Assembly (NCBI GenBank): GCA_001464765.1
Contig: LNDV01000034.1
Coordinates: 904,671 to 968,670 of the forward strand
Direction of reading: 5' to 3'
Length of the DNA stretch: 64,000 nucleotides
From: Betaproteobacteria bacterium Ga0077526
GTDB lineage: Bacteria > Pseudomonadota > Gammaproteobacteria > Burkholderiales > Ga0077523
Part shown: piece by piece, positions 2,904 through 25,436 of the stretch
Layout: each line of letters opens with the position of its first letter
Position numbering within the stretch: the first letter of the stretch is position 1
Position numbers and translations under genes: made by a program
Notes under the pieces: model-generated
What the model was told of the DNA's origin: nothing
What the model saw: only the letters and a program-made list of their open reading frames with translations
The model's database searches: none

Positions 2904-4913
2904 ATGGCAACGAGATCCGACCTGGCCAACGCACTTCGCGCACTGGCCATGGACGCCGTACAGAAGGCCAACTCCGGACACCCCGGCATGCCGATGGGCA
3001 TGGCCGAGATCGCCGAAGTCCTCTGGCGGCAGTTCCTGAAGCACAACCCCAAGGACCCCGCCTGGCCCGACCGGGACCGCTTCGTTCTCTCGAACGGTCA
3101 CGGGTCGATGCTCCTCTACGGGCTCCTGCATCTGACCGGATATGCGCTCCCGATGGCGGAGCTGGCGCGGTTCCGCCAGCTGCATTCCATGACGCCCGGC
3201 CATCCGGAACTCGGCATGACACCGGGCGTCGAGACGACCACCGGTCCGCTCGGGCAAGGCATCGCCAACGCCGTAGGGTTCGCGATCGCGGAGCGACTGC
3301 TCGCCGCCGAATTCAACCGCTCCGGTCACACGATAGTGGACCACCGCACCTGGGTGTTCCTTGGTGACGGCTGCCTGATGGAAGGGATCTCCCACGAGGC
3401 CTGCTCCCTCGCCGGGACCCTCGGCCTCGGCAAGCTCGTGGCCCTGTACGACGACAACCGGATCTCCATCGATTCCGAGAAGGGTTCCATCGAAAGCTGG
3501 TTCACGGACGACACGGCCAGGCGATTCGAATCCTATGGATGGCAGGTGGTCCGCGGCGTGGACGGGCACGACTCGGACGCCATCCGCGCTGCCATCGAGA
3601 CGGCCACCGCCCAGAGCGCCAGGCCCACGCTGATCGCCTGCCGGACCATCATCGGCAAGGGATCTCCCAAGAAGGCGAATACCGGCAGCGTGCACGGTGC
3701 GCCGCTGGGCCCGGACGAAGTAGCGGCGACACGCGCCGCGATCGGCTGGCCTTACGAGCCCTTCGTCATTCCGGACGATGTCCGTGCGGCGTGGGATGCG
3801 AGCGCCGCCGGTGCCGAGCTGCAGGCCCAATGGACCGCGAAGCTGGCGGCCTATCGCCAGGCCCATCCCGAACTCGCCGCCGAATTCGACCGGCGCATGA
3901 AGGGCGATCTTCCGGGGGGCTGGAATGCGCACGTGACTCAGGCCATCGAAAAGATCGCGACAAAGGGCGAGACCATCGCCACCCGCAAGGCTTCGCAGAA
4001 TGCCATCGAGGCCATGGCACCGGCGCTGCCCGAGCTGGTCGGCGGATCCGCCGATCTCGCCGGCTCCAACCTTACCCTCTGGTCCGGCTCCAAGCCGGTC
4101 GGGCGCGAGGGCGGCGGCAACTATTTCTTCTTCGGTGTGCGCGAGTTCGGCATGAGCGCCATCATGAACGGGCTTTGCCTGCACGGCGGGTACATTCCCT
4201 ACGGCGGCACCTTCCTCGTCTTCAGCGACTACGCCCGCAACGCGATCCGTCTGGCCGCGCTGATGAAGCGTCGCGTGATCTACGTGCTCACACACGATTC
4301 CATCGGTCTGGGCGAGGATGGTCCGACGCACCAGCCGATCGAGCACGCTGCAAGCCTGCGGATCATTCCCGGGCTCGACGTGTGGCGTCCGTGCGACTCA
4401 GTCGAGACCGCGATCGGCTGGCAGTCCGGCATCGAGCGCGCGGACGGCCCGACCGCGCATCTGCTGTCCCGCCAGAACCTGCCGCACCAGGCGCGAACGC
4501 CCGAGCAGATCGCCGCGATCCGCCGCGGCGGCTACGTTCTCGCCGACAGCCCGACCGGCAAGGTCGACCTGATTCTCATCGCGACCGGCTCCGAGGTGGC
4601 GCTGGCAGTGGGTGCTCAAGCCAAGCTCGCGGCGGAAGGTGTCGGCGCCCGCGTCGTGTCCATGCCGAGTACCAATGTGTTCGATCGCCAGGACGCCGCG
4701 TGGAAGGCATCCGTGCTCACGAAGGGCGTACCGCGGGTGGCGGTGGAAGCGGGCCACTCCGACTTCTGGCACAAGTACGTCGGACTCGAAGGGGCCGTGG
4801 TCGGCATCGATCGGTTCGGGGAGTCCGCGCCCGCCGGAGAGCTGTTCGTGCTCTTCGGTTTCACCGTCGACAACGTCGCTGCCACCGCGCGCAAGGTCCT
4901 GGCCGCCCGGTGA
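2904..4913 (+). CDS. tkt: Transketolase
   Basis: [41 protein letters not shown] and the TPP motif [13 protein letters not shown]; 669 aa. ATG 2904 preferred over track start 2058, because the upstream part is Arg/Ala-rich and overlaps ntrX. Confidence 0.95.
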
Positions 4914-5854
4914 GGCTGGTCGGAGACATCGGCGGAACCAACGCGCGTTTCGCGCTGGTCGAGGAGGGGGACGACCTTCCCCGGGAAGAGGAAACCCTCG
5001 CCTGCGCCGACTATCCGGATCTCGGCGTGGCCGCGGAGGCATACCTCGCCGCCCGCGGCACCCGCGTCCGGGATGCCGCGTTCGCCGTGGCAACGCCGGT
5101 CACCGGGGATGAGATCCAGCTGACGAACAGCGCATCCCGCCTCTCGGTCCGGGAGACCAGAGCACGACTCGGACTGGACCGGCTCCTTCTCCTCAATGAC
5201 TTCACGGCTCTGGCGCTCGCACTGCCATTGCTCCGGCCGAACGAACTGCGGCAGGTGGGTGGCGGCCAGGTGCTTGCCGGGCGGCCCAAGGCCCTCCTCG
5301 GGGCGGGAACCGGGCTGGGCGTTTCGGGACTCGTTCCCAGTGGCGCCGGCTGGATTCCCCTTGAAGGCGAGGGCGGGCACACGGCCTTCTCCCCTGCCAA
5401 CGACCGGGAGGCCGCGGTGCTCGGGGCGCTCTGGAAGCGCTTCGACCACGTGTCGACCGAGCGGGTCGCAAGCGGCCCGGGTCTTGCCTTGCTGCATGAG
5501 ATGCTGGGTCTGATCGACGGTCAGGCGGCGGAAGCGTTGTCTCCGGAGGAGATCACGCGCCGCGCGGAAGACGGCGACGTTCGCTGCCATGAAGCGCTCG
5601 AGATGTTCTGCGGGATTCTCGGGACCGCCGCCGCAAACCTCTGCGTGACGCTCGGTGCCATGGGCGGTGTCTACATCGGCGGCGGGGTCGTGCCCAGGCT
5701 CGGCGATCGCTTCGACCGCTCGTGCTTCCGGGCGCGATTCGAGGCCAAGGGGCGTTTCCGCACCTACGTTGCGGAGGTGCCGACTTTCGTCATCACTGCC
5801 GTCAATCCTGCCTTGCGAGGAGTGGCCAGGGCCTTCGACCGGCCGGTTTCGTGA
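4910..5854 (+). CDS. glk: Glucokinase
   Basis: [18 protein letters not shown]-terminus, then [11 protein letters not shown] and [11 protein letters not shown] motifs; 314 aa. GTG start overlaps the tkt stop (GTGA). Confidence 0.85.
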
Positions 5855-9649: not shown

Positions 9650-10153
9650 ATGACATCTGCCCCTCGCATCGGCATCGTGATGGGATCCCAGAGCGACTGG
9701 GAAACGATGCAGCACGCCTCCCGGATCCTCACGGAGTTCGGGGTACCCCATGAGTCCCGGGTCGTTTCCGCCCACCGCACCCCCGATGTCCTGTTCGAGT
9801 ACGCGGAGCAGGCGGCGGATCGACAGCTCGAGTGCATCATCGCGGGCGCCGGCGGCGCCGCGCATCTGCCCGGCATGCTCGCCGCGAAGACGCGCGTGCC
9901 GATCCTCGGTGTGCCGGTGCAGAGCCGGGCGCTGCAGGGCCTCGATTCGCTGCTGTCCATCGTCCAGATGCCGAAAGGCGTTCCGGTCGCGACCTTTGCT
10001 ATCGGTGAAGCGGGTGCCGCCAACGCGGCGCTGTTCGCCGTCGCCATGCTGGCGGTCAGGGACCCGGCGCTCGCCACCAAGCTCGACGACTATCGTGCCC
10101 GTCAGACGGACACGGTGAAGGCCATCCGACTGCCGGAGCCCGGTCCCGCATGA
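9650..10153 (+). CDS. purE: N5-carboxyaminoimidazole ribonucleotide mutase
   Basis: [17 protein letters not shown] and SAHRTPD motifs; 167 aa. Overlaps purK by 4 nt. Confidence 0.95.
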
Positions 10154-11298
10154 CGCCGGTGGCACCTGGGGCCTGGCTGGGCCTGCTGGGTGGCGGACAA
10201 CTCGGCCGCATGTTTTCGATGGCGGCGCAGAGCATGGGCTACCGAGTTGTCGTCGTGGACCCCGGTGGCGAGAGCCCGGCCGGGTCCGTGGCGGACGACC
10301 ATCTCCAGGCGGACTATCTGGACGAGGGCGCCCTCGGCGAACTCGCGCGGCGCTGCTCCGCCGTGACCACCGAGTTCGAGAACGTGCCGGCGGATGCCCT
10401 GCGCCGTCTCGCGGATCACTGCACGGTAAGCCCGGGCCATCAGGGCGTCGCGGTGGCGCAGGATCGCATCCGTGAAAAGCGCTTCCTGGTCGAGGCCGGC
10501 CTCGGGACGGCGCCGTTCGCCGTGATCGAGCACGAATCCGAACTCGCGCGCATCGACGAGTCGCTCCTCCCCGGCATCCTCAAGATCGCGCGACTGGGCT
10601 ATGACGGAAAGGGACAGGTCTCGGTCACCTCGCGCGAAGGGGTGCTCCAGGCCTTCCGGGACATGGGGTCCAAGCCCTGCGTCCTTGAAAAGCGGCTGAA
10701 GCTCGATCTCGAAGTGTCCGTGGTGGTTGCCCGTGGGTTCGATGGCGCGACGACCACTTTTCCTGTCGCGGAGAACCAGCACGCGAACGGCATTCTCGAC
10801 GTCAGCATCGTGCCCGCACGCATCCCGGCGGCCCTCGCACAGGAAGCCCGTGCAAAGGCCGTGCGGGTGGCCGAGGCCCTCGACTACCGGGGTGTGCTCT
10901 GCGTGGAATTCTTCGTCGTCGACGGCGGACGACTGCTTGCCAACGAGATCGCGCCGCGTCCGCACAACAGCGGCCACTACAGCATCGATGCCTGTTTCAG
11001 TTCCCAGTTCGAGCAGCAGGCGCGCATCATGTGCCGCCAGCCGCTGGGCGACACTGCGCTGAATTGTCCCGTAGTTATGGTGAATCTGCTCGGCGATCTC
11101 TGGCGTGACGGCGAACCCGACTGGAGCCAGGTGCTGCGCCATCCCAGGGCGAAGCTGCATCTCTACGGCAAGCGCGAGGCCCGGCCCGGTCGCAAGATGG
11201 GCCACTTCACGGTGCTGGCCGATTCTGTCGAGGAAGCTCTCGCGACCGCCACCGCCATCAAGTCCGCTCTTTCCCCGACGCCGCGTCCCGCGTCCTGA
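10150..11298 (+). CDS. purK: N5-carboxyaminoimidazole ribonucleotide synthase
   Basis: ATP-grasp protein ([32 protein letters not shown]), directly after purE. Confidence 0.9.
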
Positions 11299-11322
11299 CC
11301 GCTTTCCGGATTGCTCCCCAAG

Positions 11323-12216
11323 ATGACCGCCACCTCTCCCGCCGCCGTCCTCGAAACGAACCTGCGTTCCCTCAAGTTCCTGCATCGGGGCAAGGTGCGT
11401 GACATCTATGAGATCGACGCGGATCGCCTGCTGATCATTCAGACGGATCGCCTTTCGGCCTTCGACGTGATTCTCCCGACCCCCATACCGGGCAAAGGCG
11501 CCGTGCTGACCGAGATGTCGAACTTCTGGTTCGCGCGGCTGAAGCACGTGATTCCGAACCACCTGCTCGACGCCGATCCCGAGAGCTTCGTCTCGCCGGA
11601 TGAACGCGATCAGGTCCACGGACGGGCGTTCGTCGTGCGACGGCTGGCGCCGTTGCCGCTCGAGGCCATCGTGCGCGGTTATGTGGCCGGCTCGGGCTGG
11701 AAGGACTACCGCAGCACCGGCGCCATCTGTGGCATTGCTCTGCCGCCCGGTCTCCAGGAAGCGCAGCAGTTGCCCGAGCCGCTGTTCACACCCTCGACGA
11801 AGGCGCCCAAGGGCACACACGACGAGAACATCCCCTACTCCGAAGCCGAGCGGCTGCTCGGCGCGCCGATGGCCGCGAAGGTTCGGGACGCCGCGATCCG
11901 CCTCTATCGCGAAGCCGCGGAGTACGCCGGAGGGCGCGGCATCATCATCGCGGACACCAAGTTCGAGTTCGGCACCGATGCGGCGGGCTCGCTCTATCTG
12001 ATCGACGAAGCGCTCACGCCCGATTCCTCCCGCTTCTGGCCCCGGTCGGAGTATCGGATCGGCATCAGTCCGCCTTCCTTCGACAAGCAGTTCGTGCGGG
12101 ACTGGCTCGAATCCATGGCCTGGAACAAGCAACCGCCGGCTCCCTCCCTGCCGCCGGATGTCGCCGAGAAAACTGGCGCGAAGTATCGTGAGGCGTTGCG
12201 TCTTCTGACCGGCTGA
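11323..12216 (+). CDS. purC: SAICAR synthase
   Basis: [23 protein letters not shown] and [11 protein letters not shown] motifs. ATG 11323 preferred over the TTG at 11311 listed in the track. Confidence 0.9.
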
Positions 12217-12228
12217 ACGCCGCATCCG

Positions 12229-13179
12229 ATGGATCCGATCGCGGCCGCCGTGGCCCGACTGAATGCTGGGGGTCTCGTGGCTTTCCCCACAGAGACGGTT
12301 TATGGGCTCGGCGCAGACGCGACCAACCCGGAGGCCGTGCGCCGCATCTTCGAAGCCAAGGGACGACCGGCCGATCATCCGGTGATCGTCCACCTCGCGG
12401 ACGCCTCCCGGATCGGGGAATGGGCTCGGATCGTCCCCGACGCCGCCCTGAAACTCGCCGCGGCGTTCTGGCCAGGACCGATGACCCTTGTGCTCCCCCG
12501 ACAGTCCGGAGTAGCCGACATCGTGACCGGCGGTCAGGATACCGTCGGCATCCGCATCCCCTCCCACCCGGTCGCCCAGGCGTTGCTGCGCGCGTTCGGA
12601 CACGGCGTAGCCGGCCCGTCGGCCAACCGCTTCGGCCACATTTCGCCCACCACGGCGGAACACGTGCGTGCGGAGTTCGGCGAAAGCCTCGACCTGATCC
12701 TCGAAGGCGGCCCGAGTGAAGTCGGTATCGAATCGACGATCGTCGATCTGTCCGGCACCGAGCCGGTGCTACTACGTCCGGGGATGATCTCTGCCAGCGA
12801 GCTCGAAGCCGTGCTGGGGCGCAGGGTGGGCGTACCGGGCGCAGCGTCGCCCCGGGTCTCGGGGTCCCTCGCTTCTCACTACGCACCGCGAACACCCGCA
12901 GTCCTCATGAATGCCGACGACATCGATGCAGCATGGCGCGGCAAGGAGCCGCGGCTCGGGGTGCTGGCCCGTCGCCCCAGCCCGGGAAGCCACGAGCGCG
13001 GCACCTGGGTGCACGCGCCGGTCGATCCCGCGAGCTACGCCCATGATCTGTATGCCAACCTGAGGAAACTCGACGCGGCGGGCTGCTCGCGCCTTCTGGT
13101 GGAAACCGTTCCAGGCGGAGCCGAGTGGCTCGCCGTTCGCGATCGGCTCTCGCGCGCCACCACACCTGCGGAACCTTGA
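12229..13179 (+). CDS. tsaC: L-threonylcarbamoyladenylate synthase, long Sua5/TsaC2 form
   Basis: YrdC-domain motifs FPTETVYGLGADA, KGRPADHPVIVH and SANRFGHISPTTA, plus a C-terminal Sua5-like domain; 316 aa. Confidence 0.85.
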   Translation: MDPIAAAVARLNAGGLVAFPTETVYGLGADATNPEAVRRIFEAKGRPADHPVIVHLADASRIGEWARIVPDAALKLAAAFWPGPMTLVLPRQSGVADIVTGGQDTVGIRIPSHPVAQALLRAFGHGVAGPSANRFGHISPTTAEHVRAEFGESLDLILEGGPSEVGIESTIVDLSGTEPVLLRPGMISASELEAVLGRRVGVPGAASPRVSGSLASHYAPRTPAVLMNADDIDAAWRGKEPRLGVLARRPSPGSHERGTWVHAPVDPASYAHDLYANLRKLDAAGCSRLLVETVPGGAEWLAVRDRLSRATTPAEP

Positions 13180-13221: not shown

Positions 13222-14172
13222 TTGCCGGAGTTCGTCTTGGATCCTGTCGTCCTCTTCTTCCTGCTGGGTGTGATCGCGCGTCTGGTCCGAAGCGACCTGC
13301 GCCTGCCCGAAGCCATGTACGAGGGGCTGTCCATCTATCTGCTCCTCGCCATCGGGCTCAAGGGCGGGGTGGAACTCGCCAAGCATCCGGTCGGCCCTCT
13401 TCTGCCCCAAGTGGGCGGTGTTCTGCTGCTCGGGATCACGCTGCCCCTGCTGGCGTACCCGGTTCTGCGATATGTCGGACGGTTCAACCGCCCGGATGCC
13501 TCGTCGGTGGCGGCGCACTACGGGTCGGTCAGCATGGTCACTTTTGCGGTGGCCATGGCCTATCTGCTGGAACGCGGCATCTCCCACGAGCAATACATGC
13601 CGCTGTTCGTCGTCCTTCTCGAAGTACCCGGCATCGTCGTGGGCATTCTGCTCGCCAAGCTCGGTGCGGAGCGGCGTGTGGAATGGGGGGCGCTCGCGCA
13701 CGAGGTGCTGTTCGGCCGGAGTATCGTGCTGCTCACGGGCGGTCTCGTGATCGGGTGGATCTCCGGTCCTCAGGCGCTGGAGCCACAGGCCAAACTCTTC
13801 TTCGAACTGTTCAAGGCGGTGCTCGCGCTGTTCATGCTGGAGATGGGGCTGGTCGCCGCCGGACGGATCCGGGATCTTCGGCGTACGGGCCTGTTTCTCC
13901 TGGCCTTCGGCACCATCGTTCCGTGCATCTTTGCCGCGATCGGCGGTCTGGTTGCCCAGGGCATCGGGTTGTCTCTGGGCGGTGCGATCCTGCTTGGCAC
14001 GCTCGCCGCTAGTGCGTCGTACATTGCCGCACCGGCGGCGATGCGAATTGCCGTGCCCGAGGCCAATCCCTCACTGTCACTGGCGGCATCCCTCGGGGTC
14101 ACTTTCCCGTTCAACGTGCTGGTCGGCATCCCCCTCTACCATCGGGTAGTCGGCTATCTCTACGGTGCCTGA
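13222..14172 (+). CDS. SbtA-like (DUF897) sodium-dependent bicarbonate transporter family permease
   Basis: Polytopic membrane protein whose N-terminus LDPVVLFFLLGVIARLVRSDLRLPE is typical of the Sbt family, followed by an SbtB-like PII gene. Start is uncertain: TTG 13222 or in-frame TTG 13237. Confidence 0.75.
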   Translation: MPEFVLDPVVLFFLLGVIARLVRSDLRLPEAMYEGLSIYLLLAIGLKGGVELAKHPVGPLLPQVGGVLLLGITLPLLAYPVLRYVGRFNRPDASSVAAHYGSVSMVTFAVAMAYLLERGISHEQYMPLFVVLLEVPGIVVGILLAKLGAERRVEWGALAHEVLFGRSIVLLTGGLVIGWISGPQALEPQAKLFFELFKAVLALFMLEMGLVAAGRIRDLRRTGLFLLAFGTIVPCIFAAIGGLVAQGIGLSLGGAILLGTLAASASYIAAPAAMRIAVPEANPSLSLAASLGVTFPFNVLVGIPLYHRVVGYLYGA

Positions 14173-14186
14173 AAACGACGAAACCC

Positions 14187-14489
14187 ATGCAAACCCACGC
14201 CCGAAAGCTCGTTGTCATCATCACCGAATCTGCGCTGGAGTCCATGCTGGTCAAGGACATTCTGACCCTCGGCGCCCACGGGTACACGATTTGCGACGTC
14301 CGGGGAGGAGGCCGTCATGGTGCTCGCGAGGCCGCCTGGGAAGCGGACCGGAACATCCGGGTCGAGGTCATCTGCGACGACCCGACCGCTTCCGCGATTG
14401 CCGAGCACGTGCGGTCCAAGTACGCCCTGAACTATGCGACGACGGTGTTCGTCGCAGACATCGGGGTCCTCAGACCGGAGAAGTTTTGA
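14187..14489 (+). CDS. SbtB-like PII-family signalling protein
   Basis: 100 aa. KLVVIITESALESMLVKDILTLGAHGYTICDVRGGGRHG and IRVEVICDD...YATTVFVADIGVL are collinear with cyanobacterial SbtB as I recall it. Lies 14 nt after the permease gene. Confidence 0.75.
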   Translation: MQTHARKLVVIITESALESMLVKDILTLGAHGYTICDVRGGGRHGAREAAWEADRNIRVEVICDDPTASAIAEHVRSKYALNYATTVFVADIGVLRPEKF

Positions 14490-14498
14490 GGTGGTGGC

Positions 14499-14702
14499 AT
14501 GAGCACGTTCGCGACGTTGTCGTCCTGGCAGGACAAGATCCGATTCGAGTATCCCAGCGTGAACTTCCAGCAGACGGATCACCCCGGCGGCGTCAACGCC
14601 GTGTGTGAGGGCGTGCTCGTCGGCCGCTACTTCGTGGAACGCCAACCTCCCTACGGCGTCATCTACGCCCAGGCGCGCAGCTGCAACGGCAAGCCCTGGT
14701 GA
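14499..14702 (+). CDS. Hypothetical 67-aa protein, no family recognised
   Basis: SD gaggtgg lies 6 nt upstream of the ATG. Balanced composition, unlike the Arg/Pro-rich artefact ORFs. Packed 9 nt after the sbtB-like gene and 7 nt before the Rieske gene. Confidence 0.45.
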   Translation: MSTFATLSSWQDKIRFEYPSVNFQQTDHPGGVNAVCEGVLVGRYFVERQPPYGVIYAQARSCNGKPW

Positions 14703-14709
14703 CGGCTCC

Positions 14710-15078
14710 GTGACACAGGGGTGGCGGGAGCATCCTGCCGCCCCGGCCTCCGGCACGAGGCTCTGCGCCCTCGAGGACATTCCCGAGGGCGAAGGCCGGG
14801 AGTTCCTCTTCGGGACCGACCCGGGCGCCCTGCGGATTCTCGTCGTCCGACGCCAGTCGCAAATATGGGGCTACGTGAACTGCTGCCCCCACAACTACAT
14901 ACCCCTGAACGACACGCCTGACCGGTTCGTGACCTTCGATCACGAATGGATCATTTGCTCCGCCCACGGTGCGGTCTTCCGCTATGAGGACGGCTTCTGT
15001 GAAGACGGCCCGTGTCGGGGCCGTGTCCTGGAACCCGTCCCCGTGAGCCTCGCTGACGCCGCCGTGTTCGTTCGCTGA
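14710..15078 (+). CDS. Small Rieske [2Fe-2S] protein
   Basis: Rieske ligands CPH...(x20)...CSAHG. GTG 14710 chosen because the longer ATG 14605 would overlap the preceding ORF by about 100 nt. Confidence 0.75.
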   Translation: MTQGWREHPAAPASGTRLCALEDIPEGEGREFLFGTDPGALRILVVRRQSQIWGYVNCCPHNYIPLNDTPDRFVTFDHEWIICSAHGAVFRYEDGFCEDGPCRGRVLEPVPVSLADAAVFVR

Positions 15079-15151: not shown

Positions 15152-16348
15152 ATGCGTTCCTTGCTCGCGGCGGTGTTTCTGTCGGCGATGGCGTTCTGCA
15201 CGCAAGCCGAAGAGAAGAAGCCGAACCCCGGCGTCACGGACACCGAGATCAAGATCGGGCAGACGATGCCCTACAGCGGCCCGGCGTCGGCCTATGCCAC
15301 GGTCGGGCGTGCCCACGCCGCGTTCTTCGAGATGATCAATGCGAAGGGCGGCATCAACGGCCGCAAGCTGAAGCTGATCAGCCTCGACGACTCCATGGTG
15401 CCGCCCCGTGCACTGGAACAGGTGCGACGCCTGGTGGAGCAGGAGCAGGTCGCCTTCACGTTCGGCATTCTCGGACTCAGCAACATGGCGGTGCAGCTGT
15501 ACCTCAACCAGAAGAAGGTGCCCCATCTGTTTCCGGCGGTGGCCGGACGCCGGTTCCACGAACCGAAGAAGGCCCCGTGGACCATGGGCTGGGTGCCGAG
15601 CTTCGAGTTCGAGGGGCGGGTGTACGCGGAATACCTGCTGCAGAACAAGCCCGACGCCAGAATTGCCGTGCTCTACATGAACGACGATCTCGGTAAGGAG
15701 TACCTGAAGGGCCTCAAGCTGGGACTGGGCGACAAGGCCGCGAAGATGATCGTCGCCGAGGCCACTCACGAGCTGTTCGACCCGTCGGTCGATTCCCAGG
15801 TGATCCAGCTGAAGGCCTCCGGCGCGGACACGCTGTTCATGTTCACGATCCCGAAGTTCGGCACGCAGACGATCCGCCGGGTGCACGAGCTCGGCTGGAA
15901 GCCGCTGCACTTCACGGGCTACCCCGCCGCATCGATCGGCGCGACGCTCGCGCCCGCGGGTCTCGACAAGTCCGTCGGCCTCATCACCGCCTACTTCGGC
16001 AAGGATCCGCTCGATCCCGAGTACGTGAACGATACGGACGTGAAGGAGTTCGTCGAGTGGATGAAGGCCTATAACAAGGGCGCCGACATGATCGACGGCG
16101 CCTATGGCTACGCCTACATGCAGGGCCATCTGCTGATGGAAGTGCTGAAGCGCTGCGGCGATGATCTGTCGCGGGAGAACGTCATGCGTCAGGCCGCGAA
16201 CCTGAAGGACGTGCGCCTGCCCCTCACTCTGCCGGGCATTGTCATCAACACCAGTCCGGAGGACTTCCGCCCGGTGACGCAACTGCGCCTGCTGCGTTTC
16301 GACGGCAAGCGCTGGAACTATTTCGGGCCGCTGGTCAACGAACGCTGA
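15152..16348 (+). CDS. Periplasmic substrate-binding protein, branched-chain amino acid (LivK) type
   Basis: Signal peptide MRSLLAAVFLSAMAFCTQA, then IKIGQTMPYSGPASAY...GGINGRKLKLISLDD, typical of the family. No cognate permease or ATPase genes are adjacent. Confidence 0.8.
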   Translation: MRSLLAAVFLSAMAFCTQAEEKKPNPGVTDTEIKIGQTMPYSGPASAYATVGRAHAAFFEMINAKGGINGRKLKLISLDDSMVPPRALEQVRRLVEQEQVAFTFGILGLSNMAVQLYLNQKKVPHLFPAVAGRRFHEPKKAPWTMGWVPSFEFEGRVYAEYLLQNKPDARIAVLYMNDDLGKEYLKGLKLGLGDKAAKMIVAEATHELFDPSVDSQVIQLKASGADTLFMFTIPKFGTQTIRRVHELGWKPLHFTGYPAASIGATLAPAGLDKSVGLITAYFGKDPLDPEYVNDTDVKEFVEWMKAYNKGADMIDGAYGYAYMQGHLLMEVLKRCGDDLSRENVMRQAANLKDVRLPLTLPGIVINTSPEDFRPVTQLRLLRFDGKRWNYFGPLVNER

Positions 16349-16372: not shown

Positions 16373-17680
16373 ATGCGCGTTCTCGTTCTCGGCAGCGGTC
16401 TTCTGGGTACCACCTCGGCGTGGTATCTGTCTCAGCGGGGCCATGAAGTGGTGGTGGTGGATCGTCAGCCCGGCTCGGGGCTCGAGACCAGCTTCGCCAA
16501 TGGCGGCCAGATCTCCGTGAGCCATGCCGAGCCGTGGGCGAATCCGCATGCCCCCGCGCAGATCGTGCGCTGGCTCGGGCGCGAAGACGCGCCGCTCCTG
16601 TTCCGCCTGCGTGCAGACCCCGCGATGTGGGCCTGGGGCCTGCGCTTCCTGCTGGAATGCCTGCCTTCCCGCACACACCGGAACATCGCGCAGCTCGTGA
16701 ACCTTGGCATCTACAGCCGGGCGGCACTGCAATCCCTGCGCCGCGATACCGGCATCACTTACGACCATCTCGAACGCGGCATCCTCCATTTCTTCACCAC
16801 GCCCGCGAGTCTGGCCGCCGGTGTGGAAGCCGCCGCGGCGATGCGGGAGTACGGGTGCGACAGCCAGCCCGTCACCCGTGAGGAGTGCTTCGCTCTCGAG
16901 CCTGCGCTGAGGAACGCGACGGTCGACATCGTCGGCGGCACCTTCACGTCGACGGACGAGTCGGGCAACGCCCATGTCTTCACTAAAAAACTCGCGGCGC
17001 TGTGCGCATCGAGAGGCGTGCGCTTCGAGTACGACACGCGGGTGATTGCTCTGAAGCCCGAAGGCGGTGCCATCGGTTCCGTCGCCGTGCAGACCGGCAC
17101 GCAGCCCGCACGCGAGTTGCGCGCCGATGCGTATGTCGTCGCGCTCGGAAGCTACAGTCCCCTGCTGCTACGCCCGCTGGGGTTGTCGGTGCCTGTGTAT
17201 CCGGCCAAGGGCTACTCCGTCACCCTGCCGGTACGCACCGAAGACGAAGCTCCGGTTGTCAGCCTGACGGACGATGAACAGAAGTTGGTGTTCTCACGGC
17301 TGGGCAACGAACTGCGCGTGGCAGGCACGGCGGAATTGAACGGCTACAACACCGAGATCAATCCCGTGCGGTGCGAGGCCATCGTGGCGAGAGTGAAGTC
17401 ACTCTTTCCGCGTGCTGGTGACTTCTCGCAGGCGCGCTTCTGGACGGGGCTGCGGCCGGCCACGCCGGGCAACGTGCCGCTCATCGGCCAGTCGCGCATC
17501 CCCAACCTGTATCTCAACACCGGTCATGGCACGCTCGGCTGGACCCACTCGTGTGGATCAGGCAAGGCTCTCGCGGAACTCATCGACGGGCGGGTGCCCG
17601 ACGTCGATTTCGCATTTCTGGGCGTGCAAGGCCGGCGTGCCGGACCGGTCGCTACGGCGCGCGCGCGGGACGCCCACTGA
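16373..17680 (+). CDS. dadA: D-amino acid dehydrogenase-like FAD oxidoreductase
   Basis: FAD fold MRVLVLGSGLLGTTSAWYLSQRGHEVVVVDR; 435 aa; C-terminal NTGHGTLGWT motif. Confidence 0.8.
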   Translation: MRVLVLGSGLLGTTSAWYLSQRGHEVVVVDRQPGSGLETSFANGGQISVSHAEPWANPHAPAQIVRWLGREDAPLLFRLRADPAMWAWGLRFLLECLPSRTHRNIAQLVNLGIYSRAALQSLRRDTGITYDHLERGILHFFTTPASLAAGVEAAAAMREYGCDSQPVTREECFALEPALRNATVDIVGGTFTSTDESGNAHVFTKKLAALCASRGVRFEYDTRVIALKPEGGAIGSVAVQTGTQPARELRADAYVVALGSYSPLLLRPLGLSVPVYPAKGYSVTLPVRTEDEAPVVSLTDDEQKLVFSRLGNELRVAGTAELNGYNTEINPVRCEAIVARVKSLFPRAGDFSQARFWTGLRPATPGNVPLIGQSRIPNLYLNTGHGTLGWTHSCGSGKALAELIDGRVPDVDFAFLGVQGRRAGPVATARARDAH

Positions 17681-19742: not shown

Positions 19743-20198
<456 letters not shown>

Positions 20199-22231: not shown

Positions 22232-23026
22232 CTACTGTCGGGGCTCGCCCGCTACGGGCACACTGCTCTCGAAGCGCAACTCGCTGGAGTCCACTACCTC
22301 CGCGCTGAGCGTTCCTTCCCCGTCGGGGACGAAGTTGAAGCGGAACGCGGGGTTCTCGCTGATCGAGAAATCGACGCTCGCCGACATCACCAGCCGGTCA
22401 CGCCACAGGACCCGAACTGTGCGGACGAACTGCGGGGGCTCCACCACGTGAGAAGTCTGGTCCACCGCGAGGCCGGACGTGTTCGGATGCCGGATGAGCA
22501 GCGCGACGGCGTTCGGGATGTCCTGGCGGATGGTATCGGGAAGCTGCCAGCGCATGCGGCCGAGCGTCGTCGCGTCTGCCGCACGCTTGTTGCCGGGAGC
22601 CGAGCAGCCGCCGGCAGCTTCGATGAACTTCGTGGTCATGCTGAGCGAGCCATCGGCGAACTCGGCCACCACGCGCACCGGGCTGTTGGTCTCGACACGC
22701 ACACGGGTCTCGATCTCCACGTTGCCCGCGGCCTCGCCGAACTCGAAGATCGCTGCGACGGGCGAGGGATTCCGGTCGATGAACAGGTGCAGTTTGCGGG
22801 GTGATGCCATTCCCGGGCGAGGTCGCGTGAGGATCGTCACCGGGACGACCGAAGCGTCCTCCGCGCGGGCGGGGAGGAACAGTACGAGCTCGGGACCGGC
22901 GGTGGTGATGGGCCGCGTGCCGAAGAGGCTCGCCTGCACCATGGGCCAGACATCCGTGGAGTCCTCCGCGGTGGCGGTGCCGGTGATGCAAAGCGAGGCA
23001 AGGGCGATGAGCAGGGCGCGGCGCAT
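22232..23026 (-). CDS. Fused SoxY-SoxZ-like sulfur-carrier protein
   Basis: Signal peptide MRRALLIALASLCITGTATA. SoxY-like half ends in IEAAGGCSAPG (GGC carrier-cysteine motif). SoxZ-like half carries LLIRHPNTSGL and ISENPAFRFNF. ATG 23026 preferred over 23080. Confidence 0.7.
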   Translation of the reverse strand: MRRALLIALASLCITGTATAEDSTDVWPMVQASLFGTRPITTAGPELVLFLPARAEDASVVPVTILTRPRPGMASPRKLHLFIDRNPSPVAAIFEFGEAAGNVEIETRVRVETNSPVRVVAEFADGSLSMTTKFIEAAGGCSAPGNKRAADATTLGRMRWQLPDTIRQDIPNAVALLIRHPNTSGLAVDQTSHVVEPPQFVRTVRVLWRDRLVMSASVDFSISENPAFRFNFVPDGEGTLSAEVVDSSELRFESSVPVAGEPRQ

Positions 23027-23167
23027 GGGTGGAACGATACGCCATCGGCCCGCGCTGTCACAGGGGGTGAGAACAGGCATCCCCTCGGCTGCACGGGCGA
23101 GGCGGGCAGCGACATCCTTGGCCGATCGCGACGAGTCTCGTGGCGGCTCAGAGGCTTACCGCGAGGC

Positions 23168-24409
23168 TCAGTCCGAACCGTAGCCCCGGACGCGGTTCGC
23201 TTCTGCTGCACTGACGGGCGATGCCCGGTTCGACCAGGCCGAACGGATGTACGTCACCACGGACGCGACATCCCCATCGCCCAGTGTCTGGCCGAAGGGC
23301 GGCATGCCGTGCGGCCGGGAATCGAACTTCGTGGCGGGGGCGTAGCCGCCGACCAGCACGATGCGGACGACGTTTGCGGGCGGGTTCATCACCACGGCGC
23401 GATTGCCGTCGAGCGCGGGAAAGACGCCTGGCCGCCCCTGGCCTTGATCGCCGTGGCAGTCCTTGCAGTGCTCTCCGTAAAGCGACTTGCCGCGAAGCCA
23501 GGTCGGGTCCTTCTCGTTCGGACTTTCGACGCGCGGCCTGGGGCGGATACGCGTCGGCAATGTGACGAGAAACTCCGACAGGGCGTCCATATCCTTGTCG
23601 TTCCAGTGCTGCATGGAGCGTGCGACGATCTCGGCCATCGGGCCGGAGGTGGTGGCTCGTGTCGAGCGGCCGGTGCGCAGCAGATTCGCGACCTCGGTTC
23701 GGGGCCATCCTGCGAGGCCGGCCTGCGCGGGGTCGTGCAGAGACGGTGCATACCACTTCTGCTCCGGGATCGTGCCGCCGTCGAACTCCGGATCGTTCTT
23801 CGTCACCGCGCCCAGCCAGTTGCGCGGCGCGTGGCAGGCGTCGCAATGGCCGAGGCCTCTGGCGAGATAGGCGCCTCGGTTCCACTGTTCGGACCGCGAC
23901 GGATCGGGCGCGAACGGTTCGGCGCGGAAGAACATGGCGCGCCACAAACGGAGCAGCCAGGGCTGGTCGAACGGCAGGCGGAGGTCGTGGGGTCGGTTGG
24001 CTTGCTTGCGTGGCGTGATGGTTTTCAGGAAGGCGAAGATCGCATCGCTGTCCTGCCGTGTCACTCTGGTGTAGTTGGGATACGGAAATGCGGGATACAG
24101 AAGACGCCCGCCACGCGACACACCGTCGTGCATGGCACGCCAGAAGTCTTCGGAGGACCAGGCACCGAGCCCGGTGTCCCTGTCCGGTGTGAGATTGGAG
24201 GCGTAGAACGTGCCGAAGGGAGTGGCCATCGGCTTACCGCCCGCGAATGGCGCGCCACCCCGCGCCGTGTGGCAACCCTCGCAGTTGCCGACGTTGGCGA
24301 GGTAGGCACCCCGTTCGACGATGTCGTCGCCGGCAGCGAGCCCGCTCGATGCCAACGCGACTGCGCAGACGGCGGCGTGAACGAGGAACAGGACAAATCG
24401 GCGGATCAT
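23168..24409 (-). CDS. Trihaem cytochrome c, dehydrogenase cytochrome-subunit type
   Basis: Three CxxCH motifs (CEGCH, CDACH, CKDCH). Signal-like N-terminus MIRRFVLFLVHAAVCAVALA. ATG 24409 overlaps the upstream stop (ATGA). Confidence 0.8.
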   Translation of the reverse strand: MIRRFVLFLVHAAVCAVALASSGLAAGDDIVERGAYLANVGNCEGCHTARGGAPFAGGKPMATPFGTFYASNLTPDRDTGLGAWSSEDFWRAMHDGVSRGGRLLYPAFPYPNYTRVTRQDSDAIFAFLKTITPRKQANRPHDLRLPFDQPWLLRLWRAMFFRAEPFAPDPSRSEQWNRGAYLARGLGHCDACHAPRNWLGAVTKNDPEFDGGTIPEQKWYAPSLHDPAQAGLAGWPRTEVANLLRTGRSTRATTSGPMAEIVARSMQHWNDKDMDALSEFLVTLPTRIRPRPRVESPNEKDPTWLRGKSLYGEHCKDCHGDQGQGRPGVFPALDGNRAVVMNPPANVVRIVLVGGYAPATKFDSRPHGMPPFGQTLGDGDVASVVTYIRSAWSNRASPVSAAEANRVRGYGSD

Positions 24410-25179
24410 CTTCCTGTGGCCGGTTCCGTCACCGTGAAACTCCCGCATTCCATCGGCGGCTTCCGGACAAGCGATCGGACAGCCTTCGTATCGGGCGGCA
24501 GCGGCTGCGAAGACAGCCACGCCGCCACGGCGCCGATGTCCTGCGGCGATAGCCTGCCGGCGATCTGTGCCATGCAATCGGGTGCGAAAGCGCGTCGCTG
24601 GCCGCTGCGCCACGCGCCTAGCTGCGCGTTGAGGTAGTCGCGGGGCAGCCCCAGCAGGCCGGGTACCGCAGGGGCGAACCCCGTGAGCGCCTCGCCATGG
24701 CATTGATTGCATGCAGGGACATCGTGGGCCGGATCCCCGCGAGTGACCAGTTCGCGGCCGCGTTCGAGCAAAGCCGATGACGCGGAAGCGGGTCGCGGCG
24801 GCGGATAGGGAAGATCGAGCGCCGCGAAGTGGCGCGCCATCTCGAGCAGATAGATGTCGGGCAGTGTGTCCAGCAGATGCGTCATCGGTGCGTAGCGTCT
24901 GCGACCGTCGCGGAAACTCAGCAGCTGCTGGAAGAGATAGCCGGCCGGCTTGCCGGCGATGCGCGGGTAGTAGCCGTCAGGGGCTGCCCGACCCTCGGGG
25001 CCGTGGCAGACGGTGCAAGCGCGCACCCGCAGTTCGATCGAGTCGGGAGCGGTTTCGACAGCCAATGCGAGGGGTGCGCTGATTGTCCAGGCGACCCCCA
25101 TCTGGGCCAGGTTCCGGAGAAACCGCCGGCACGAAGCCGAAATGCGTCGACCGCCGAAGAAACGCGTCACCGTGATCAT
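24406..25179 (-). CDS. Dihaem cytochrome c (c4-like)
   Basis: Two CxxCH motifs (CTVCH, CNQCH). Start uncertain: ATG 25179 sits directly after a terminator T-run; ATG 25101 is the alternative. Confidence 0.7.
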   Translation of the reverse strand: MITVTRFFGGRRISASCRRFLRNLAQMGVAWTISAPLALAVETAPDSIELRVRACTVCHGPEGRAAPDGYYPRIAGKPAGYLFQQLLSFRDGRRRYAPMTHLLDTLPDIYLLEMARHFAALDLPYPPPRPASASSALLERGRELVTRGDPAHDVPACNQCHGEALTGFAPAVPGLLGLPRDYLNAQLGAWRSGQRRAFAPDCMAQIAGRLSPQDIGAVAAWLSSQPLPPDTKAVRSLVRKPPMECGSFTVTEPATGR

Positions 25180-25216: not shown

Positions 25217-25400
25217 GAATGGGTGCCCCCCGCAAATGCCGTCAGGCCGGGCATCTTGAACCTGGGGTCCAAGAGTGGTCGCGTTCCGAGCGCCGTAGGT
25301 ACATCCACATGGGACGCGCACAAAAGCGCTGCTCAGGTCCGCAACCGGGTGGTTGACATTGGTTCAGAGAATTAACGACCTGTCGAACACCACAGGGAGC
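25205..25400 (-). ncRNA. ssrS: Candidate 6S RNA
   Basis: Non-coding stretch directly downstream of zapA, the conserved position of ssrS. Minus strand contains CUUGGACCCCAGGUUCAAGAUGCCCGGCCUGACGGCAUUUGCGGGG, resembling the E. coli 6S 3' half (CUUGAACCAAGGGUUCAAGGGUUACAGCCUGCGGCGGCAUCUCGGAG) as I recall it. 5' CCCUGUGG can pair with 3' CCACAGAGG. Ends are approximate. Confidence 0.55.
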
Positions 25401-25436
25401 GAAGACGATGTCTTCGAAAGACTTAACGGAAGGAAC

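Follow-up and report, generated by a model that had tools for sequence, protein, structure and literature searches.

A betaproteobacterial cluster of sbtA, sbtB, a small orphan gene and a Rieske ferredoxin gene is probably two separable gene pairs kept adjacent by common descent

Four tightly packed genes in the genome of Betaproteobacteria bacterium Ga0077526 raise the question of whether a transport pair of the SbtA/SbtB kind, a small protein and a Rieske protein make up one regulatory module, or whether two gene pairs lie side by side for reasons of ancestry. The genes are found in a stretch of 64,000 nucleotides (nt) of contig LNDV01000034.1 (assembly GCA_001464765.1, positions 904,671 to 968,670), which is called the window below. 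Coordinates are 1-based positions in the window, and all four genes are on the + strand, spanning 13222-15078. An initial annotation, made from the sequence alone, had proposed that the Rieske protein and the small protein supply a redox input in trans to the transport pair. Our analysis favours a different reading, to which we give a probability of roughly 0.7, namely that sbtAB and orf67-Rieske are two separable two-gene units, adjacent through shared ancestry in one betaproteobacterial clade and not mutually dependent. The four genes, with product lengths in amino acids (aa), are as follows.

13237..14172, + strand, sbtA-like gene for a permease of the Sbt_1 family (PF05982), 311 aa; Pfam Sbt_1, E=1.2e-116
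14187..14489, + strand, sbtB-like gene for a PII-like protein, 100 aa; Pfam P-II, E=2.2e-21
14499..14702, + strand, orf67, a predicted small soluble protein, 67 aa; no family match, conserved homologues
14710..15078, + strand, Rieske-type [2Fe-2S] ferredoxin gene with a GTG start, 122 aa; Pfam Rieske, E=1.3e-8

The gaps between sbtA and sbtB, sbtB and orf67, and orf67 and the Rieske gene are 14, 9 and 7 nt, exactly as the initial annotation had read them, and its assignment of the products to an SbtA-family permease, an SbtB-type PII-like protein and a 122-aa Rieske protein agrees with the Pfam matches listed above. The longest open reading frame (ORF) of the sbtA-like gene begins with a TTG at 13222 and would give 316 aa, while on identical contigs the start chosen by gene callers is the TTG at 13237, which gives 311 aa. 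We then consider how far the four genes keep together in other species. An SbtA alignment, run against a single genome of each GTDB species, gave 60 loci, the sample consisting of SbtA proteins that share the peptides AHYGSVSM and LALFMLEM, with cyanobacterial and very divergent SbtA outside it; the neighbours were mapped by tblastn with called proteins and by ORF choice on the G+C content of third codon positions (GC3). On the whole, 23 of the 60 species form one Burkholderiales/Rhodocyclaceae clade with common flanks, in which the backbone runs purC, sua5, sbtA, sbtB, then orf67 and the Rieske gene where present, and further on an aminotransferase gene on the opposite strand, a gene for a 976-aa FAD oxidase and a cupin gene. 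The order purE-purK-purC-sua5 upstream of sbtA is kept in all loci of this clade that are long enough to show it. Among the 23 species, nine have all four genes, six have sbtAB and the Rieske gene, two have sbtAB and orf67, and six have sbtAB alone. The other 37 species belong to Gammaproteobacteria, Balneolaceae, Bacteroidota, Nitrospira and further groups, with SbtA identities of at most 60%; near their sbtAB genes orf67 was found in none (0/37), and neither tblastn nor a scan of all nearby ORFs for the CxH...CxxH motif found a Rieske gene in any (0/37). The linkage between sbtAB and a Rieske gene to which the initial annotation had drawn attention is thus present in 15 of the 23 clade species, where the Rieske gene follows sbtB or orf67, and fails in all 37 species outside. 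Since it is confined to one clade with common flanks, the adjacency is explained by common descent. The same picture is seen from the other side. A metagenome scan with a Rieske alignment, covering proteins that share one peptide pattern, gave 71 loci, of which 10 are of the clade type and 61 are others whose Rieske proteins are 35-51% identical to that of the window; neither sbtA nor sbtB was present in the flanks of any of the 61 distant loci. A literature search on SbtA, SbtB and Rieske proteins returned only incidental co-mentions in cyanobacterial papers.

Besides being limited in range, the association also comes apart within the clade. The tree of its Sua5 proteins implies that sbtAB was lost at least twice and that orf67 was lost at least three times independently; genomes with no Rieske gene fall mostly in a basal subclade of this tree. 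Two genomes, L012 and L082, are without sbtAB, and in both orf67-Rieske is intact directly after sua5. The first of them is the Betaproteobacteria metagenome-assembled genome (MAG) GCA_016125475.1, in whose 267-nt spacer between sua5 and orf67 (5546-5803 of that locus) 57 nt of the sbtB T-loop region survive as a relic with 77% identity to the window species, showing that sbtAB was deleted there while orf67-Rieske stayed under selection; no such relic is detectable in L082. Three further loci (L151 at 4480-5045, L152 and L153) have a gene for a 65-aa orf67 homologue followed, after a gap of 2 nt, by a gene for a Rieske protein 68% identical to that of the window. Their flank is unrelated to that of the clade, with a GH57 gene and then a gene for a ribosome hibernation factor, and has neither sua5 nor sbtAB. 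As both halves occur without the other, sbtAB and orf67-Rieske are separable, and the unit that coheres across contexts is orf67-Rieske, not sbtB-orf67 or sbtB-Rieske. In most relatives the stop codon of orf67 overlaps the Rieske start (by 1 or 4 nt) or abuts it, and the two genes would be translationally coupled. Two local rearrangements were also seen: in L034, of the group with orf67 and no Rieske gene, a gene for a metal P-type ATPase is inserted between, and in L013 the 391-nt gap between sbtB and orf67 contains an 81-nt GC-rich tandem repeat (5413-5724; 3.9 copies, 95% matches).

Several observations nevertheless weigh against treating the two pairs as independent. With gaps of only 7-14 nt, and with no promoter-like or terminator-like site between the four genes in a scan that is weak in DNA of 66% G+C, co-expression of the four is likely and a shared physiological role is possible; in this genome the sbtAB and orf67-Rieske units probably share a transcript. 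In the subclade with Rieske genes, the immediate upstream neighbour of the Rieske gene is almost always sbtB or orf67, and orf67 is known only from bacteria in or near the clade, in most cases immediately downstream of sbtB. As to the spacing, the four genes are part of a same-strand run of about 13 genes (gap, pgk, pyk, purE, purK, purC, sua5, sbtA, sbtB, orf67, the Rieske gene, a binding-protein gene and a DAO-family gene) in which all gaps are at most 75 nt, so that tight packing is not peculiar to them. The members of this run nearest to the four genes are as follows.

9650-10153, + strand, purE (Pfam, on identical contigs)
10150-11298, + strand, purK (Pfam, on identical contigs)
11311-12216, + strand, purC (Pfam, on identical contigs)
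12229-13179, + strand, sua5/tsaC (Pfam, in the window itself)
15152-16348, + strand, binding protein of the Peripla_BP_6 family (Pfam)
16373-17680, + strand, FAD dehydrogenase of the DAO family (Pfam)

The missing redox loop of the SbtB-like protein bears most directly on the proposed module. The protein ends in ...VLRPEKF and has no C-terminal CGPxGC redox loop (R-loop), as the initial annotation had noted, and the Rieske protein with orf67 would, in its proposal, replace that loop in trans and tune SbtA/SbtB. However, 43 of the 60 species loci (Betaproteobacteria, Gammaproteobacteria, Balneolaceae, Bacteroidota and others) have an sbtB homologue immediately downstream of sbtA, and none of these 43 non-cyanobacterial proteins beside SbtA homologues has a CGPxGC R-loop or a C-terminal cysteine pair; they end in VLRPEKF or VVRGDKY, as TTHA0516 of Thermus thermophilus does. 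The absence is therefore the rule outside cyanobacteria, and no compensation for it is needed. Even among cyanobacteria the R-loop is optional and occurs in a subset of SbtB proteins (PMC9974498, PMC8352866), and it is reduced by thioredoxin, not by ferredoxin, and takes no part in the contact with SbtA (PMC9974498; PMC8352866). We also asked whether SbtB cysteines go along with the Rieske gene or with orf67 and rejected the idea, as no cysteine pattern correlates with either: Cys36 of the window SbtB is found, apart from the window species, in only a few others, and Cys63 is widespread with or without a Rieske gene. The redox input in trans draws on the tight packing and probable co-transcription of the four genes, on the Rieske gene following sbtB or orf67 in 15 of 23 clade species, on the almost exclusive occurrence of orf67 at this position, and on the precedent of SbtC, a small accessory subunit that joins cyanobacterial SbtAB (bioRxiv 10.1101/2025.11.25.690420). 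Against this stand the restriction to one clade with common flanks, the independent loss of the components, the survival of orf67-Rieske after deletion of sbtAB and its presence in an unrelated flank, the R-loop being absent throughout the 43 proteins and an optional, thioredoxin-reduced disulfide in cyanobacteria (PMC9974498), and the want of a cysteine pair in SbtB that follows the Rieske gene or of orf67 cysteines that persist in distant homologues. We consequently regard the proposal of the initial annotation as quite improbable. A wider form of it, in which orf67 and the Rieske protein were recruited in this clade as accessory subunits of SbtA/SbtB and couple bicarbonate import or retention to the redox or respiratory state, appears to us very improbable; if true, bacteria outside the cyanobacteria would have, in a ferredoxin-based form, an equivalent of the thioredoxin/R-loop control and of SbtC.

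On the reading of two separable units, the SbtB-like protein would belong to the R-loop-less type resembling TTHA0516, which appears to be standard outside cyanobacteria. TTHA0516 (PDB 2cz4), an uncharacterised PII-like protein, is its best solved relative (E=4e-17) and shares its length class and the type of C-terminus (...VVRGEKY compared with VLRPEKF); a full-text search gave no paper naming TTHA0516. Cyanobacterial SbtB structures (6wue, 5o3p, 6mm2) align over residues 5-95 with E=6e-7 to 5e-6. In Synechocystis SbtB, the T-loop residues K40, R43 and R46 bind the phosphate of adenine nucleotides (PMC9974498). According to the alignment, the window T-loop (RGGGRHGAR) keeps R46 as Arg, while K40 is Gly and R43 is His with another Arg one position off. 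The window protein thus differs from cyanobacterial SbtB in a T-loop shorter by 4 residues and in the lack of in-register counterparts of K40 and R43, besides the missing R-loop. By analogy with cyanobacterial SbtAB, whose complex structure is solved, the trimeric PII-like protein would reach with its T-loop into the permease cleft on the cytoplasmic side in an adenine-nucleotide-dependent manner and plug the transporter. The principle is that of AmtB-GlnK, in which a PII-family trimer likewise plugs a trimeric transporter via its T-loops, and it has been applied to SbtAB as a model (PMC8352866; bioRxiv 10.1101/2023.08.10.552651), although AmtB-GlnK differs in transporter family and in effector logic. 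On the whole, sbtAB in the window is of the known SbtA/SbtB kind and of the common R-loop-less type, in an arrangement shared by descent.

The permease matches the Pfam Sbt_1 profile with 389.7 bits (cut-off 27) over positions 1-307 of 308, and Synechocystis SbtA (7cye) with E=1e-27 in two blocks. The window pair resembles the cyanobacterial SbtA-SbtB pair (Synechocystis Slr1512/Slr1513; PDB 7cye, 7egk, 5o3p) in its families, Sbt_1 and P-II, in gene order and tight adjacency, and in the collinear alignment of both proteins. It differs in having a permease with about 60 fewer residues and a non-photosynthetic betaproteobacterium as host; the part missing from the permease includes the cytoplasmic loop of about 40 residues. 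In Synechocystis SbtA, the Na+ site is formed by the backbone of F110-G111-A112 together with A320/S322, and docked bicarbonate is held by S114, Y140, S324 and S327 (PMC8352866). The corresponding Na+ segment of the window permease aligns as YGS and A..S, which is compatible with the Synechocystis site. Of the four residues that hold docked bicarbonate, only S114 and S324 are kept, Y140 being replaced by Val and S327 by Ala, which counts against bicarbonate as the substrate. These replacements, the missing regulatory loop, the low identity to the characterised transporter and the lack of a carbonic anhydrase or RuBisCO gene beside the pair in the window would suit a carrier of some other anion or solute, gated by the PII-like protein according to energy status. 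This alternative concerns the sbtAB unit only and is independent of the other alternatives weighed here. We hold it to be unlikely, because conservation extends to S114/S324 and to the backbone region of the Na+ site and because the genomic context and a report on proteobacterial SbtA argue for inorganic carbon. As for context, PurK and Sua5/TsaC, like CarAB, consume bicarbonate, and in the clade the pair follows purK and sua5. In four Balneolaceae/Rhodohalobacter loci (L057, L058, L059 and L068), sbtA-sbtB comes directly after carA-carB, and in three of the four a beta-carbonic anhydrase gene is next. The pair thus lies there between carAB and a beta-carbonic anhydrase gene, which gives independent context support for the handling of inorganic carbon by this SbtA subfamily in non-photosynthetic bacteria. 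In autotrophic Pseudomonadota, SbtA-family transporters serve bicarbonate uptake, and sbtA of Thiomicrospira pelophila is induced 280-fold at low dissolved inorganic carbon (PMC12628692), showing that proteobacterial sbtA genes respond to its limitation. Judged from the sequence, bicarbonate is a probable substrate of the window permease, which would be an Sbt_1-family, probably Na+-coupled importer of bicarbonate or a related small anion, and the context suggests that sbtAB most likely supplies bicarbonate to carboxylations such as those of PurK and TsaC/Sua5. LysR regulator genes were noticed near sbtA in 11 loci, in several of them divergently adjacent.

It is of interest to discuss the second unit separately. 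The gene orf67 has GAGGTGG about 7 nt ahead of its ATG. Its 67-aa product, which the initial annotation could not place in any family, indeed has no match in Pfam, NCBIfam, PHROGs or PADLOC, but it does have conserved homologues, with nine clusters among 5.8 billion proteins at 55-88% identity and with 21 invariant columns. Searching 1.84 billion representative proteins with a profile added three true relatives only, among them the 65-aa and 68-aa homologues described here; three other matches were discarded, being repetitive proteins matched in 8-10 short stretches. The GC3 of orf67 is 0.88, its median nonsynonymous variation (pN) among 11 orthologues is 0.26 compared with a synonymous one (pS) of 0.55, its variable columns concentrate at codon position 3, and it is called as a gene on every related contig. 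By this pattern of variation orf67 is a real gene under purifying selection. Its AlphaFold2 (AF2) model has a predicted local distance difference test score (pLDDT) of 83.7 and comprises one amphipathic helix and a four-stranded sheet with no hydrophobic span. In the PDB, Foldseek gave a best E of about 1 and the profile search only chance-level matches (E>1), so no fold is assigned. Two cysteines are invariant within the clade; in distant homologues Cys36 becomes Thr or Ile and Cys62 becomes Ser. The most distant homologue (L149, 4561-5207) has 68 aa, is without Cys36 and has no Rieske neighbour; upstream of it, with a 4-nt overlap, is a gene for a 147-aa protein without a Pfam family, and downstream are two DUF3592 genes. 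We also considered whether orf67 might be SbtC, the 80-aa small subunit of cyanobacterial SbtABC, whose gene lies upstream of sbtA, which has a predicted transmembrane helix and which is reported to be restricted to cyanobacteria (bioRxiv 10.1101/2025.11.25.690420). The two are alike in being small, previously unannotated, encoded beside sbtAB and present only in part of a lineage. However, orf67 lies downstream of sbtB, is predicted to be soluble, is paired with a Rieske gene and persists without sbtAB. The identity was rejected on the transmembrane helix, the position and the distribution, with the published description of SbtC as the standard of comparison.

The GTG start of the Rieske gene is backed by the N-termini of homologues. 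Among 19 homologues, the cluster ligands C59-P-H61 are invariant and C83-x-x-H86 nearly so, the lone exception being a truncated sequence, in accordance with the [2Fe-2S] assignment of the initial annotation. As read from its sequence, the protein has none of the cysteines that form the loop disulfide in high-potential Rieske proteins. The folds that best match its AF2 model (pLDDT 87.5) are those of CarAc, T4moC and BphF (Foldseek E of about 1e-6 to 1e-5, TM 0.65-0.75). From sequence and model, it is most likely a soluble Rieske ferredoxin of the low-potential type; being of the ferredoxin type by sequence and predicted fold, it would act as a one-electron carrier and not as a dithiol-disulfide reagent. 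The Rieske ferredoxins of oxygenases (CarAc 1vck/2de5, T4moC 1vm9, BphF 1fqt) are alike in their size of about 105-120 aa, in fold, in the CxH...CxxH ligands and in having no loop disulfide. They differ in that sequence similarity is marginal (E of about 0.05), that the window protein has a spacer of 21 residues between its ligand pairs and an extra DGxCxxGPC motif, and that its gene is paired with orf67 and adjoins no oxygenase or reductase gene. Genes for an oxygenase alpha-subunit or a ferredoxin reductase were found in the flanks of neither the window locus nor the clade loci. The DGxCxxGPC motif (residues 94-102 with Cys97 and Cys102; within window 14875-15078) is specific to the family, almost invariant and placed after the cluster ligands, and its cysteines might be joined in a disulfide or provide another contact to metal. 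The Rieske subfamily is broader than orf67, with 45 clusters.

One may ask whether the Rieske protein, with orf67, instead carries electrons for an oxidoreductase encoded downstream, either the DAO-family FAD dehydrogenase (16373-17680) or, in relatives, the 976-aa protein with FAD-binding, FAD-oxidase and Fe-S parts. Fusions of DAO and Rieske domains exist in other bacteria. The Rieske gene is followed by a DAO gene in L085, L012, L019, L020 and L081 and, beyond the binding-protein gene, in the window species, while the FAD oxidase gene lies within 45-353 nt in L009, L022, L027, L029, L033 and L078-L080. However, this flank is variable and often broken by the divergent aminotransferase gene or by a MarR/efflux insert, a DAO gene that adjoins the Rieske gene is 219-266 nt away from it, the FAD oxidase gene is equally present in the Rieske-less L037, L039 and L040, and the distant Rieske relatives have other neighbours. 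We therefore think a downstream partner of this kind very unlikely. On the preferred reading of two separable units, the second unit would consist of a Rieske ferredoxin and a lineage-restricted 67-aa partner, and the enzyme that they most likely serve, as one-electron carrier and as adaptor or stabiliser, would have its gene elsewhere.

Two neighbourhoods recur among the 61 distant Rieske loci. In 26 of them the Rieske gene directly follows a gene for an EVE-domain protein (PF01878), as a rule in the order methyltransferase, EVE, Rieske and then an opposite-strand saccharopine dehydrogenase gene (L091, L099, L101, L105-L107, L109-L112, L114, L115, L120-L122, L125, L126, L129, L130, L132, L133, L135, L137, L138, L141 and L144; L017 is also listed). 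This may be shared synteny in one taxon or a real partnership; a literature search joining 'EVE domain' and Rieske returned nothing. The window also has an EVE gene (19743-20198, - strand), 4.7 kb from the Rieske gene and on the opposite strand. In about 16 other distant loci (among them L089, L092-L097, L100, L102, L117-L119, L124 and L134), the order is a PnpC-like small subunit, a PnpD-like large subunit of hydroquinone 1,2-dioxygenase, the Rieske protein, a CobS-like AAA protein, a CobT-like VWA protein and a Dabb protein.

As regards the organism, 21 contigs from metagenomes of water-treatment and activated-carbon samples encode the identical SbtB, and the closest species genome is an uncultured Rhodocyclaceae MAG (L018) with 99% SbtA identity. 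Elsewhere in the window, a fused SoxY-SoxZ gene (282 aa) lies beside a gene for a 514-aa c-type cytochrome (22232-24712, - strand), which hints at sulfur oxidation in this organism. A 6S RNA is found at 25223-25401 on the - strand (Rfam RF00013, 60.7 bits, full length), and no tRNA genes were found in the 64 kb.

In terms of significance the result is routine as it stands. Neither the bicarbonate-supply context nor the orf67-Rieske unit opens a long-standing question. In orf67-Rieske, two genes, one of them for an orphan small protein, make up a unit that is both conserved and mobile. The SbtAB subfamily occurs repeatedly beside bicarbonate-consuming enzymes, purK/sua5 in the one case and carAB with carbonic anhydrase in the other, and this fits a housekeeping supply of bicarbonate in non-photosynthetic bacteria, a role that has been little studied.

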